Positions 8,087-34,689 are shown, counted from the first letter of the stretch. The stretch: DNA of 40,357 bases from a virus (IMGVR_UViG_2740892106_000010), one strand, 5' to 3'. Notes: generated by a model not told the origin, from the letters alone. Numbers and translations are program-made.

Positions 8087-8163
8087 TTACCTGTTTGGTA
8101 ATAAAATATTCTAAACTCTATTGATTTCGTGTCTTATGTGGTTTTTAATTACCTCAGGGGTAA
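8087..8163. promoter_or_regulatory. Promoter bracketed by two TTACC-N5-GGTAA palindromes upstream of gene 8167
   Basis: Perfect palindromes at 8087..8101 and 8149..8163; between them TTGATT (-35-like), a 17-bp spacer containing ATGTGGTT, and TTTAAT (-10-like) abutting the second palindrome. Confidence 0.55.
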
Positions 8164-8166
8164 ATC

Positions 8167-8511
8167 ATGAGAAAACAGATACAGGCTCTTGGTCGACTCA
8201 AAACAGGCCAGATGAACAAAACAGAATCTGCGTATTGCCAGCACCTTGAGCTGCGTAAACGTGCAGGGGAAATCGCCTGGTATCGATTCGAGGGTATCAA
8301 GCTGCGGTTAGCTGATAACACGTTCTATACGCCAGATTTCGCTGTGATGCTCGCCACCGGAGAGATGGAACTGCACGAAGTGAAAGGTTTCTGGACCGAC
8401 GACGCCAGGGTGAAAACCAAAGTCGCCGCAGATCAATATCCGTTCCGAATCATCGGGGTAACTGTTAAGCCAAAGAAAGCAGGTGGCGGATGGAAAATCG
8501 AAGAGTTCTGA
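8167..8511 (+). CDS. PD-(D/E)XK-like nuclease family protein (DUF1064/VRR-NUC-like)
   Basis: 114-aa ORF; YTPDF...ELHEVKG motif consistent with a PD-(D/E)XK fold; family name recalled, not searched. Confidence 0.45.
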   Translation: MRKQIQALGRLKTGQMNKTESAYCQHLELRKRAGEIAWYRFEGIKLRLADNTFYTPDFAVMLATGEMELHEVKGFWTDDARVKTKVAADQYPFRIIGVTVKPKKAGGGWKIEEF

Positions 8512-8572
8512 ATCGACGATCTTTTTAGTTATCAATGTAATCAATAAGTTATGTGGATAAGCGAGGGTAAAG

Positions 8573-8731
8573 ATGGAAAGTAATATCAAAGGGTTAGTTG
8601 CCGCCGGGCATGAGATGGCTTCGGAACTGAAAGCAGAATGTGGTGCCGTTGATATGCGCAGTGTGGCAAAGCTGATCAGCGATTTGGCAACGCAACTGGA
8701 AGTGCAACTGGTGCGACAAGATATCTGCTGA
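8573..8731 (+). CDS. Small hypothetical protein (52 aa), possibly the 5-prime part of a frameshifted gene
   Basis: GAGGG RBS 6 nt before the ATG; stops at TGA 8729..8731 while another frame is open from 8653 to 9024. Confidence 0.3.
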   Translation: MESNIKGLVAAGHEMASELKAECGAVDMRSVAKLISDLATQLEVQLVRQDIC

Positions 8732-8853
8732 GCGTTCTTGCCAGAGAGCTGGTTGCCAGTGGTGATGTATACAATTCAGGCTACGGATTATTCCCGTCTG
8801 AGCAGGCGCGTAAAGACTGGCAAAACGCCCGCAAAAAACTATCAAGGGAAAAG

Positions 8854-9024
8854 GTGAAAAAACCGGTTGTGGTTGATCCTGACCTTATCTGGTCGTTACC
8901 AGACGGCGAAATACGTCGCTACGACAGGCGCCTAAACATAATCTGTCGCGAGTGCCGGAAGAGTGAAGCTATGCAGCGTGTACTGGCGTTTTATCAGGGG
9001 AATTTTGAGGAGGTGGTGCGGTGA
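8854..9024 (+). CDS. Hypothetical protein (56 aa from GTG); the frame is open upstream to 8653 without a canonical start
   Basis: Protein-like translation across 8653..9024; first canonical start is GTG 8854. Confidence 0.3.
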   Translation: MKKPVVVDPDLIWSLPDGEIRRYDRRLNIICRECRKSEAMQRVLAFYQGNFEEVVR

Positions 9025-9275
9025 GTGAATCAAAATGCCAGGTTAATGGCAACAAGATAGAACCATGTGCAGCACTGGCAAAGTCCCTTGAGCGTGATGC
9101 TGAATACACGATGCGAAAAGGTCTGCTGATATACAAAATCTGGAATGAGAGTTTAACTCGCGGTCCTGATTTTGTGATGTTTCGTTCCGGTGAATTTTCT
9201 AAATTACCAGTTCTGGTTTCATTTTGTCCGTTCTGTGGTGAAAGTCTGAAAACGTGGGAGAACAGAAATGAATGA
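9021..9275 (+). CDS. Hypothetical Cys-containing small protein
   Basis: 84-aa ORF, GTG start with GGAGG RBS; C-x-x-C-like pair (CPFCG). Confidence 0.5.
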   Translation: MSESKCQVNGNKIEPCAALAKSLERDAEYTMRKGLLIYKIWNESLTRGPDFVMFRSGEFSKLPVLVSFCPFCGESLKTWENRNE

Positions 9276-9579
9276 AATTAAAGAAATACCAGTAGTACGT
9301 GATGAATATGGCTACTGGACGCATCCTGAATATGAAAAATTCTGTGACGGTCGGGAATATATTTCAACGGAAGAGTTTAACGCCTGGATGGAGGAAAATA
9401 ATCTTCAATACGTCCTCTGCTTCAGAGATGAAGGATGTGCTGACCTTGATGCGTGTGATGCTGATATTTCTGCATGGGAACCGGAACGACCAGAGGGCAA
9501 TGGATGGTTTATTGGTTCAATACATGACACCGAAGATGGCCCGGTTTGTGTATGGCTGAGAAATAAGGCCGAAGCATAA
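9268..9579 (+). CDS. Hypothetical protein
   Basis: 103-aa ORF with GGGAG RBS; start overlaps the upstream stop. Confidence 0.5.
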   Translation: MNEIKEIPVVRDEYGYWTHPEYEKFCDGREYISTEEFNAWMEENNLQYVLCFRDEGCADLDACDADISAWEPERPEGNGWFIGSIHDTEDGPVCVWLRNKAEA

Positions 9580-9707
9580 AGGCTATAAACCGACTAACAA
9601 CTAAATACTGAAGATTTAAATCAGAAACGATTTTTATTAAATCCTTAACCGGAGGGATTCCTGCACCCTCAGAACATCAGGAGGCCGTCCGAAAGGGCGG
9701 TAGTGAA

Positions 9708-9890
9708 ATGCGAAAATTCAAAATAATTATTGAAACGGGAATAGCCGGTGGAGATTTCGAGGATGAATTCGAAGTGGATGATGATGCAACACCAGATGAA
9801 ATACAGGATGAAGCTAAAGATATTTTCTTTAACTACTGCAATTACTCATACCACGAAATAAAAGACGAAGAGGAAGAACAAAATGGCTGA
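9708..9890 (+). CDS. Hypothetical acidic protein
   Basis: 60-aa ORF, highly acidic. Confidence 0.4.
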   Translation: MRKFKIIIETGIAGGDFEDEFEVDDDATPDEIQDEAKDIFFNYCNYSYHEIKDEEEEQNG

Positions 9891-10059
9891 TTTTGGTTCA
9901 ACTAAATATAACGCCAGTTTTGAAGAATGGCATGAACTGTTAATGGATTATGCAGAGTTACGCGGTGGAAGTGCCGCTGATGCTGAAGCATGGCGTGATG
10001 ATTATGAAGCAGGGAAAACACCGGTCGAAGCATATTGTGATGAGTGGGGCGATGAATGA
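9883..10059 (+). CDS. Hypothetical small protein (58 aa)
   Basis: ORF below the track cut-off; ATG overlaps the upstream stop and its own stop overlaps the next ATG, suggesting coupling. Confidence 0.35.
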   Translation: MADFGSTKYNASFEEWHELLMDYAELRGGSAADAEAWRDDYEAGKTPVEAYCDEWGDE

Positions 10060-33493: not shown

Positions 33494-33977
33494 CTTTCAC
33501 GACGAAATAGCAATTATCTTTATAATCTAACTGGATGAACTTTATGTTTTCAGGGAGTTTTACAGAAAGAGTTTTTGCACAAGCAAAACCAAAATCTGCG
33601 CCAGAAGCATCCATATACCTTAATAATTGTTTTAATGCTGAAGGAGAAAAAGTATCTACCTTCACCTCAACAGGGTAACCATCTTTTGTTTTTAGGTCTG
33701 GTTGACCTGGTCCACCAAGTATTTCAGCGTTAAGGTATTTTGCTATTTCTGGATAAGCGTTGTATTCAGAGCGTAGTTTTGCCTTGTTATCGACTGCTAG
33801 TTGCATAAGATGATCAAACAAATTGGTATCTAAATCTGCCCCTTCATCCCACATTCTATTTCTACAGCTAATCAATTCACTGACCAGTGGTGCACTTTCT
33901 TGCCTTAGCATAAGAAGGAGTGGAGAATTAGAAATTAACCAATACAGATCGTCGTTTGAGATTTTTTGGCCTGGCAT
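33471..33977 (-). CDS. Hypothetical protein with PD-(D/E)XK-like motif
   Basis: 168-aa AT-rich ORF with GAGG RBS; D-x(n)-EVK motif (DGYPVEVKVD); overlaps the start of the Ant-like gene. Confidence 0.45.
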   Translation of the reverse strand: MPGQKISNDDLYWLISNSPLLLMLRQESAPLVSELISCRNRMWDEGADLDTNLFDHLMQLAVDNKAKLRSEYNAYPEIAKYLNAEILGGPGQPDLKTKDGYPVEVKVDTFSPSALKQLLRYMDASGADFGFACAKTLSVKLPENIKFIQLDYKDNCYFVVKDGGNENA

Positions 33978-34132
33978 AGCGATACCTCTACTAGTAAGTT
34001 ACCCACCACCGCAACGCCAATTGCTGGTGGTGAACTGGACAAGGTTGGCGTACCGGCCTAGTAGGTACCGGCGCACCTTTCGGTGCCCCTGCCCAGCCCA
34101 CCATAATTCGGATATGACTGTGCTATACGCAT

Positions 34133-34154
34133 AAAAAAACCACGTCTGGCGTGG
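34133..34154 (-). terminator. Rho-independent terminator (minus strand)
   Basis: Hairpin CCACG-ccaga-CGTGG followed on the minus strand by TTTTTTT. Confidence 0.55.
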
Positions 34155-34245
34155 TATGCGCCTACTAGTAATCCGGGACGCCAATCCCGGCACTGGATTT
34201 TGCCAGTGCCCGATTACTATGGCACAAGAGGAGTGCGATGTAAAT

Positions 34246-34288
34246 TTACCGCAAAGGTAAATATAAGCACTCCATTTGGTAATTGCAA
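34246..34288. promoter_or_regulatory. Leftward sigma70-like promoter with overlapping TTACC-N5-GGTAA palindrome
   Basis: On the minus strand: -35 TTGCAA (34283..34288), 16-bp spacer, -10 TTATAT (34261..34266), then the perfect palindrome TTACCgcaaaGGTAA (34246..34260) over the predicted start site. Confidence 0.45.
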
Positions 34289-34291
34289 ACC

Positions 34292-34549
34292 TTATCTGGT
34301 TTGTTTTCGTAATTGTTCGGCACAATAGTCGAGATGTGTTTGCAGATCCTGCATAGACATCTGTGAGCTGGTGACGTAGTTAATCAGTGCAGTCAGTTCG
34401 GCAAGTGGGCCATCGACATTAAATCCATCCTTATCGAGATCCCGGAGTAATTTCATCAAGTGCGATCCCTCCACCAGTGACCTGACGCCTCCCGGCGTGT
34501 GAATCCTTTCGGTAAATCCGTCTTCCAGTGGATAGTGATACTGCTGCAT
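34292..34549 (-). CDS. SOS-regulated small protein (85 aa), paralog of the Ant-like C-terminal domain; antirepressor candidate
   Basis: ATG at 34549 with GGAG RBS (track start 34567 is TTG); near-consensus LexA box 22 bp upstream; alignable by eye to residues about 170-240 of the protein encoded at 32759..33493. Confidence 0.55.
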   Translation of the reverse strand: MQQYHYPLEDGFTERIHTPGGVRSLVEGSHLMKLLRDLDKDGFNVDGPLAELTALINYVTSSQMSMQDLQTHLDYCAEQLRKQTR

Positions 34550-34570
34550 CTTATCTTCTCCATGCAATAA

Positions 34571-34586
34571 CTGTATAAATATACAG
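34571..34586. promoter_or_regulatory. LexA (SOS) box
   Basis: aaCTGTATAAATATACAGta matches the CTGT-N8-ACAG consensus with an AT-rich spacer (one spacer deviation from TACTGTATATATATACAGTA). Confidence 0.8.
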
Positions 34587-34624
34587 TATCAAATAATTTG
34601 TTTGCTATCCAGCACGTTTTGCAA

Positions 34625-34689
34625 ATTACCTGAAAGGTAATATCTATTCATATTCACAGTCTTTCTATCCATATGTGGTTTTTCAGGTA
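34625..34689. promoter_or_regulatory. Divergent regulatory region upstream of the tailspike gene
   Basis: Perfect palindrome TTACCtgaaaGGTAA at 34625..34639 followed about 32 bp later by ATGTGGTTtttcaGGTAA (34672..34689); on the minus strand a TTGCAA -35-like hexamer abuts the palindrome and leads into the LexA box. Confidence 0.5.

Follow-up and report, generated by a model that had tools for sequence, protein, structure and literature searches.

A 14-bp dyad beside repressor half-sites in the late promoter regions of a phiV10-like podophage, a putative second operator class

The viral DNA stretch IMGVR_UViG_2740892106_000010, analysed here at its full length of 40,357 nucleotides (the window), shares its gene order with phages phiV10 and epsilon15 (Table 1). 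Over positions 12000-20000 the identity is 97-98% with a group of Escherichia phages that includes phiV10 and vB_EcoP_ZX5, and about 78% with epsilon15, SPN1S and SPC32H. By these similarities the window is a temperate podophage of the Uetakevirus type, phiV10/epsilon15-like. Phages of the epsilon15, phiV10 and SPC32H type are known from structural models, from E. coli O157:H7 reporter phages, and as a model of a non-canonical repressor/antirepressor switch. No discussion of their late promoters, and no account of how their late genes are switched on, was found in the accessible literature. Upstream of the head operon and of the tailspike gene, the window possesses a 14-base-pair (bp) dyad, here called P2, followed by a sequence similar to one arm of the operator of the phage repressor (Rep) and by -10-like hexamers.

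A sequence-only reading of the window had described an 18-bp block, ATGTGGTT-N5-GGTAA, at these two places, and proposed it as the recognition element of a phage-encoded late activator. The repeat is real and strongly conserved. Exactly two copies are present (15274-15291 and 34673-34690, the second lying one base to the right of the 34672-34689 first assigned to it), with 0.00 expected and no match in any of 100 shuffled sequences. ATGTGGTT alone occurs three times, which is at chance level (24 of 100 shuffles reach three). The limits of the motif were set wrongly, and ATGTGGTT is only the right arm of P2 (consensus AWYCRTATRTGGTT, perfect form AACCATATATGGTT), because the perfect palindrome stands without GGTAA at the lysis promoters of relatives. 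The lysis-operon promoters of phiV10 and Tyrion carry AACCATATATGGTT as a perfect 14/14 palindrome, those of epsilon15 and SPC32H carry variants of one to three bases, and in all of these relatives TATTGTG follows, and then TATAAT or TATGAT.

With at most two mismatches, P2 occurs four times in the window (starting at 6205, 15268, 34288 and 34667), in each case in an intergenic region, compared with 0.18 expected and a maximum of three in 100 shuffles. A relaxed pattern detected the motif at orthologous positions in seven genomes, on both strands, and none of the relatives examined lacks P2 at such positions. The 29 distinct sites give the symmetric consensus A-W-Y-C-R-T-A-T-R-T-G-G-T-T, with the right arm better kept than the left, and the dyad symmetry is preserved at seven non-homologous regulatory regions with unrelated flanks. 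P2 is also separable from GGTAA. It stands alone at the lysis promoters of relatives, lies 7 rather than 5 bp from GGTAA in Pantoea, and is accompanied by the inverted half-site TTACC, as part of a full operator, in the 'mid' control region, at PL, in the region of the cro-like terminator and at the c4 promoter. These arrangements speak against a single 18-bp recognition unit, and P2, being present at other conserved promoters, is not restricted to late ones.

The arms of P2 (WAACC, N6 spacing) differ from those of the Rep operator (TTACC, N5 spacing), and P2 appears to form an operator class of its own, a second one beside that of the known repressor. The block at the head and tailspike promoters is read, on sequence, as a composite of the new dyad, the known operator half-site and a -10-like hexamer. 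P2 is without annotation in the phiV10, epsilon15, Tyrion and SPC32H records. The string AACCATATATGGTT gave no match in a full-text literature search, an earlier description in the primary epsilon15 and SPC32H papers being possible.

Conservation in related prophages, which the sequence-only reading had named as a check, was found at both late promoters. At the head promoter the block GGTAATAATTTAA is invariant in the alignment, and TAT.TGGTT, the half-site TTGGT and AAATAA are invariant in 13 genomes, from Escherichia, Salmonella, Enterobacter, Klebsiella, Citrobacter, Kluyvera, Scandinavium, Buttiauxella, Erwinia and Pantoea. Klebsiella phages whose flanks are too diverged for blastn still match in only this head stretch of about 100 bp. 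In 79 E. coli prophages whose portal genes are identical, common single-nucleotide variants lie upstream of the operator, in its 5-bp spacer and in two 3-nucleotide blocks; only rare variants were found in the stretch that runs from CTACG over P2 and the half-site to the -10. Five divergent genomes retain ATTCATAT..GGTTT...GGTAATAGAAT at the tailspike, with GGTAATAGAAT invariant.

The palindrome TTACC-N5-GGTAA is present ten times in the window compared with 0.01 expected, and its orthologues in the epsilon15 GenBank record are annotated as 'protein_bind repressor'. As had been recognised earlier, GGTAA is common to the motif and the palindrome, and the GGTAA(T) beside P2 can be read as a half-site of the Rep operator. 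The full 15-bp operator does not extend over 15287 and 34686, where only the right arm GGTAA was found and the left arm reads TGGTT. Full operators form pairs with a spacing of 62 bp, one at PL (5026, 5088) and one in the mid region (8087, 8149). This pairing was observed in every genome examined (for example at 32555/32617 and 35907/35969 in a relative, L002), the exception being 63 bp at PL in one Klebsiella phage. The SPC32H repressor is a tetramer with paired DNA-binding domains (PMC9638917), and pairs separated by about six helical turns fit one repressor tetramer bridging two sites.

Similar to these pairs, the head GGTAA at 15287 lies exactly 62 bp from the GGTAA at 15225 of the upstream operator (62 bp throughout the Escherichia-type genomes, 64 bp in Pantoea, 60 bp in Proteus and Morganella); at the tailspike the distance between half-sites is 50 bp, not 62. 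The palindrome and its proximal half-site correspond in three lineages, as TTACC/GGTAA, as TAACC/GGTTA in Proteus and as TAAAC/GTTTA in Morganella, with few sites per lineage. This parallel change in Proteus and Morganella is suggestive, and the Proteus GGTT could instead be an arm of P2.

A full palindrome (O1) stands ahead of both late sites as claimed, at unequal distances instead of a common one of about 45 bp: counted from its start, ATGTGGTT follows after 59 bp at the head and after 47 bp at the tailspike. Measured between the centres of O1 and P2, the distance is 52.5 bp at the head (13/13 genomes; 5.0 helical turns), 40.5 bp at the tailspike (5/5; 3.86 turns), 43.5 bp at the lysis promoters (4/4; 4.14 turns) and 42.5 bp in the mid region (5/5; 4.05 turns). 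The distances are fixed for each promoter class and close to whole helical turns.

The absence of a clear -35 at the late sites was confirmed. A simple scan found no sigma-70-like promoter at 14100-15400 or at the tailspike site. Neither late site possesses a -35/-10 pair with a spacing of 16-18 bp; there are -10-like hexamers, but the best -35 matches are 3/6 (ATCATA, TCCATA). A common layout, P2-N7-TA(T/A)(A/T)A(T/G/A), is shared by the head, tailspike and lysis promoters, and in it P2 would occupy about -33 to -20. Class II activators bind at sites centred near -41.5. P2 at 6205-6218 (centred at about -40.5) and at 34288-34301 (about -41.5) takes this position; at the head and tailspike its centre lies at about -26 to -30. 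Two other readings of the late promoters were tried and rejected: a class-II one, for which no -10 is present at the required distance, and a MerR-like one with a 19-bp spacer, for which no -35 is present.

Table 1. Genes and control elements of the window, ordered by position.
Feature	Position	Strand	Remarks
Integrase, then leftward early operon	first in gene order
Repressor gene (Rep)	5160..5744	-	E = 4e-42 to 5d50_A (SPC32H repressor, PDB 5D50); HTH_3 match
Cro-like protein gene, 76 amino acids	5899..6129	+	phrog_35 'transcriptional repressor'
Promoter after cro-like terminator	6185..6244	+	same layout in 6/6 genomes
Operator-like GTACC-N5-GGTAA	6185-6199	+
P2 AACCAAATCTGGTT	6205-6218	+
-35 TTGATC; -10 CAAAAT	6217-6222; 6239-6244	+	N16-17 between; first two bases of -35 overlapped by P2
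Replication genes, then variable 'mid' operon	after cro-like gene		Cys-rich gene is last gene of mid operon
Mid control region	8080..8163	+	promoter TTGATA-16-TAAAAT; full operator in spacer (8087-8101)
Second mid candidate promoter	8121-8126; 8144-8149	+	TTGATT-N17-TTTAAT
Weak P2-like site	8130-8143	+	9/14; in second mid spacer; contains 8136 site
Second full mid operator	8149-8163	+	over ribosome-binding site; 62 bp from first
GGGTAA-N4-GGGTAA direct repeat	8551..8570	+	across ribosome-binding site; not a P2 member
Cys-rich protein gene (epsilon15 gp49 family)	11645..11983	+	directly 5' of small terminase gene
Terminase genes, then small insert with tRNA-Arg			insert on minus strand
tRNA-Arg (TCT)	14816-14892	-	between terminase and head operons
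O1 of head promoter, full Rep-type operator	15215..15229		orthologue annotated as repressor site in epsilon15
TTGACA, candidate -35	15246..15251	-	TTGACA-N17-TACCTT; -10 overlaps O1; points at tRNA-Arg
P2 AATCATATGTGGTT, head	15268..15281	+	12/14 to AACCATATATGGTT
GGTAAT, Rep half-site	15287..15292	+	5 bp after P2
Overlapping -10-like TAATAA; TAATTT	15289-15294; 15292-15297	+
Head/tail operon	starts 15320	+	start of first gene
Antirepressor modules		-	between head/tail operon and tailspike
c4/isrK-antirepressor module promoter	34246..34301	-	tool scan
P2 of c4 promoter	34288-34301	-
-35 TTGCAA; -10 TATATT	34288-34283; 34265-34260	-
Full operator of c4 promoter	34246-34260	-
O1 of tailspike promoter, full Rep-type operator	34626..34640
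P2 ATCCATATGTGGTT, tailspike	34667..34680	+	kept in 5 divergent genomes
GGTAAT half-site and -10-like hexamers	34686..34696	+	TAATAG (34688-34693); TAGAAT (34691-34696)
Tailspike gene, then lysis genes	34745-37207 (tailspike)
Degenerate P2 AACCGTAAATGGTG	37207..37220	+	11/14; between tailspike and lysis genes

Among the other P2-bearing regions, the promoter after the cro-like terminator possesses a GATC (Dam) site within its -35, conserved in all six genomes. The first gene after this promoter (6278-6490) encodes a protein of 70 amino acids with an invariant C-x-H-x-H...C-x2-C motif and no family match, possibly a zinc-binding regulator. At the c4 promoter, P2 overlaps the pair TTGCAA-17-TATATT. 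Rfam detected a C4 antisense RNA (76.7 bits) and isrK (68.1 bits) at 34023-34209 on the minus strand, upstream of an open reading frame of 168 amino acids and an antirepressor of 244. By sequence likeness this module resembles P1 immI, in a podophage that also carries a small LexA-boxed antirepressor: a LexA-box-like CTGTATAAATATACAG (34571-34586) lies directly 5' of the small antirepressor gene (34292-34567, minus strand) and is kept in relatives. The Ant protein of SPC32H is under SOS control, and the LexA-like box is consistent with that.

At PL of Tyrion and at the second mid promoter, P2 or a weaker copy of it fills the 17-bp spacer of a good -35/-10 pair, and a full operator covers -7 to +8. 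The ATGTGGTT-N5-TTACC reported at 8136-8153 was found here. The ATGTGGAT-N7-GGTAA reported at 8551-8570 is likewise present and is unrelated to the motif; relatives read ATACGGGT or AAACGGGT in place of its ATGTGG. A perfect DnaA box, TTATCCACA, lies at 8552-8560 on the minus strand, just 3' of the replication genes, in the phiV10 lineage only, relatives having CCCGTAT. In the lysis region, the degenerate P2 at 37207-37220 is probably the remnant of the separate lysis promoter of relatives, absent from the window. At the head, TTGAC of the minus-strand hexamer is conserved in all alignments; the head operator may control two divergent promoters, because the conserved minus-strand TTGACA-N17-TACCTT overlaps it (15223-15251).

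Host factors were also compared with P2. A 9/9 DnaA box (TTWTNCACA) is present only at 8552-8560. The site at 15275-15283 matches 8/9, its mismatch falling at a fixed position, CACA is lost in relatives, and DnaA-like 9-mers are not enriched (14 found, 8.5 expected). The consensus sites of CRP, IHF, ArcA and PhoP showed no fit by eye.

Taken together, an activator role for P2 is plausible. From the proposed late activator site there remains a conserved element, with class-II-like geometry at two other promoters, which is neither one unit nor confined to late genes. We tentatively favour, with a confidence a little short of an even chance, composite late promoters, which a dimeric phage regulator would open from P2 and which Rep would close in the lysogen. 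A dimeric DNA-binding protein of the phage would occupy P2, the first guess being the Cro-like helix-turn-helix (HTH) protein, presumably a remote paralogue of the domain with which Rep binds DNA. A P2 that abuts a -35 with its centre at about -41, as at the cro-like-terminator and c4/antirepressor promoters, would activate in the class II manner; at about -33 to -20 of the head, tailspike and lysis promoters it would replace the missing -35; and a P2 filling the spacer of a promoter whose -35 is good would have a repressing effect. During lysogeny, tetrameric Rep on the full operator four to five turns upstream would reach the proximal half-site or the P2 region, close the promoter and exclude the activator.

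Five proteins are conserved in all genomes and were considered as candidates for P2 binding: the Cro-like protein, the 70-amino-acid protein with the C-x-H-x-H...C-x2-C motif, a PerC-like protein, an AlpA-family protein (82 amino acids) and the Cys-rich protein. The Cro-like protein is favoured as a first guess because its HTH is related to that of Rep, its recognition helix is different and invariant, and the P2 arms resemble the operator arms. The homology to the N-terminal HTH of Rep is weak. The recognition helix reads AGTTSHYIQTHLTG, and AGTTSHYIQ.HLT does not vary among orthologues of 58-84% identity. There would thus be two conserved HTH proteins, each with its own invariant helix, for two kinds of dyad whose half-sites are related. 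A PHROG scan of the mid-operon open reading frames revealed no late activator.

Several observations weigh against the favoured reading. Tyrion is the only genome with a good P2 in the PL spacer, and the -10 is ambiguous at both late sites, where either TAATAG or TAGAAT (tailspike) and either TAATAA or TAATTT (head) could serve. The spacing between P2 and GGTAA is not rigid, Pantoea having 2 bp more. For an activator, a site centred near -26 is unusual, and one protein would need position-dependent effects, because P2 takes three positions relative to the promoter elements. The stretch that separates rep from the cro-like gene, in which a true Cro would be expected to act, showed no P2. Nor was a heteroimmune relative found: all 80 IMG/VR loci, as far as they extend into this region, have the same rep and cro-like gene. 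The loci of Proteus, Morganella and Providencia end short of the immunity region, and the phage collection contained no Proteus-type phage.

The lysis leader of relatives (L001 24747-24815; L002 24759-24827) also counts here. A hairpin of about 30 pairs (-30.8 kcal/mol) is predicted for it; an AAGGGGG Shine-Dalgarno-like sequence is hidden within, and the folded leader takes in the P2 right arm. The epsilon15 record annotates an RNase III site at this leader. The presumed lysis -10 (TATAAT) sits in the 5' arm of the predicted hairpin. If the hairpin is formed on the late mRNA, transcription would start further upstream. Alternatively, only read-through transcripts could fold, with the late promoter starting inside the hairpin. 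The T4 lysozyme gene is controlled in such a way. The hairpin was predicted only for the lysis leader of relatives, and no compensatory changes were found in it.

P2 could also be a repressor site only, bound by the Cro-like protein, by another phage repressor or by a second surface of Rep, with the late promoters being weak constitutive sigma-70 promoters that are occluded. We consider this possible and on balance unlikely. The positions of P2 over the late -35/spacer zone, and in the spacers of PL (Tyrion) and the second mid promoter, are classic for a repressor; P2 is almost always 5 bp from a half or full Rep site and in helical phase with the upstream operator; and Rep itself possesses a second HTH_3 domain. 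The tailspike promoter can be read as T(T/C)CATA-17-TAGAAT (8-9 of 12), and the A/T-rich AAATAA block upstream would help such weak promoters. However, at two conserved promoters P2 lies just 5' of the -35 (about -41), where it would not block polymerase. The late -35 positions are poor and are not kept as such, whereas the dyad is, and a lytic-phase repressor on every late promoter has no obvious purpose.

Slightly less probable is a wider scheme, in which the 76-amino-acid Cro-like protein, and not a dedicated late factor, would run the whole lytic cascade through P2, its effect being set by the position of P2, and Rep would bridge from the operator to a hybrid P2/half-operator site. From about -41 the protein would activate the replication and antirepressor promoters, at the head, tailspike and lysis promoters it would take the place of the -35, and from the spacers of early promoters it would repress.

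It is improbable that ATGTGGTT-N5-GGTAAT is one unit recognised by a late activator, for which the sequence-only reading had named the Cys-rich protein as candidate. The open reading frame at 11645-11983 is present, and its product is the best conserved small early protein, with 52-86% identity in all relatives, down to Proteus. It belongs to phrog_536, which PHROG labels 'transcriptional regulator', and its gene lies directly 5' of the small terminase gene, as lpa of P1 does relative to pacA. RinA-type activators of Gram-positive phages, which act on a promoter upstream of terS (PMC3152322), were likewise counted in its favour. However, the halves of the block separate, as seen at the lysis promoters, in the inverted half-sites and in the N7 spacing of Pantoea. 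The protein has no Pfam, NCBIfam or PDB match, no detectable homologue of known function and no homology to Lpa; its AlphaFold model is all-helical with low confidence (pLDDT 65.7). Homologues are accessory genes in phiKO2, which possesses a Q-like protein, and in a P2-like Yersinia phage, whose 72-amino-acid 'transcriptional regulator' at the genome end is taken to be Ogr-like by position. These findings speak against the Cys-rich protein as the factor.

The neighbouring small terminase gene has a conserved terminator and two adjacent operators upstream (12040-12110). The second of these (12088-12102) has the right arm GGTTA and overlies the ribosome-binding site. The phiV10-style TTG start at 12024, 5' of both operators, is probably mis-called. 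No promoter or P2 is evident ahead of the gene in this region.

Just as improbable as the single-unit reading is one with no dedicated factor, in which an ordinary spacer and -10 are kept by descent and the head and tailspike copies derive from promoter duplication. The whole 50-bp head region is conserved and not P2 alone, and the compared lineages share ancestry; however, the dyad symmetry recurs at seven non-homologous regions, with perfect palindromes, and spacers normally vary, as neighbouring positions here do. Least probable of all is that the block acts within a structured RNA leader (as a target of RNase III, or by hiding the ribosome-binding site in a hairpin) or serves as a host-factor site such as a DnaA box: the folding energy of the relatives' lysis leader, the epsilon15 RNase III annotation and the DnaA matches of TGTGGTTAA (8/9) and the 8551 site (9/9) are in its favour, but the hairpin lacks compensatory changes, the head and tailspike copies have no shared pairing partner, and the TATGG or TAAGG arm of relatives destroys the DnaA match.

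A second, unannotated operator class at every late operon offers a concrete 14-bp site for mutation, footprinting and use as bait. If P2 is the late switch, it would explain the repressor operator sequence at each late operon, and would provide a compact promoter/regulator pair for phage engineering. If P2 is a repressor site only, the result is a modest refinement of the known operator map.

Among known systems, the loading sites of Q and AlpA are similar to the late promoters described here only in having a factor element between -35 and -10; the AlpA binding element (ABE) of P. aeruginosa lies at -25 to -20 (PMC9371919). Such systems depend on a strong promoter that has a -35, on a sigma-dependent pause and on a terminator downstream. 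At the late sites of the window no -35, and no terminator-like site before the first gene, was found; no search was aimed at a Q homologue. The AlpA-family protein here, with 82 amino acids, is also far smaller than the antiterminator.

Class II sites, such as CRP sites and that of lambda CI at PRM, are similar to P2 at the cro-like-terminator and c4/antirepressor promoters, where the -35 shares 1-2 bp at its upstream edge with P2; at the head and tailspike, in contrast, P2 lies about 15 bp closer to the -10. The Rep operator is another relative of the block: GGTAAT equals one arm, the head copy lies in the 62-bp register of true pairs, and Rep is a clear homologue of the SPC32H repressor. The differences are that the left arm is replaced by the P2 right arm TGGTT, and that the tailspike copy stands at 50 bp.

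The late promoters of phage P1, like those at the head, tailspike and lysis operons, possess a -10 without a -35 and a short dyad-like element in the spacer zone. In the P1 RefSeq record this is a 9-bp '-22 region', for example AAGTGACTA-N4-TAAATT. Several dispersed late operons of P1 each have their own copy, as here, and lpa, directly 5' of pacA, has a C1 repressor operator annotated beside it. The P1 element, however, is of the AAGTGACTT type and not AACCATATATGGTT, and P2 measures 14 bp instead of 9 and ends 7 and not 4 bp before the -10. The late promoters here also carry repressor operator sequence, and P2 occurs at about -41 elsewhere. A homologue of Lpa was not detected (tblastn against the window gave nothing below E = 3, and hhalign of the gp49 family with Lpa a probability of 0.4%). 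Because sequence, size and spacing differ and an Lpa homologue is lacking, P2 is not a member of the P1 family. By analogy, the P1 late promoter is nevertheless the closest functional counterpart, and P2, if it is the late switch, would provide a second, sequence-unrelated example of a P1-style late promoter without a -35.

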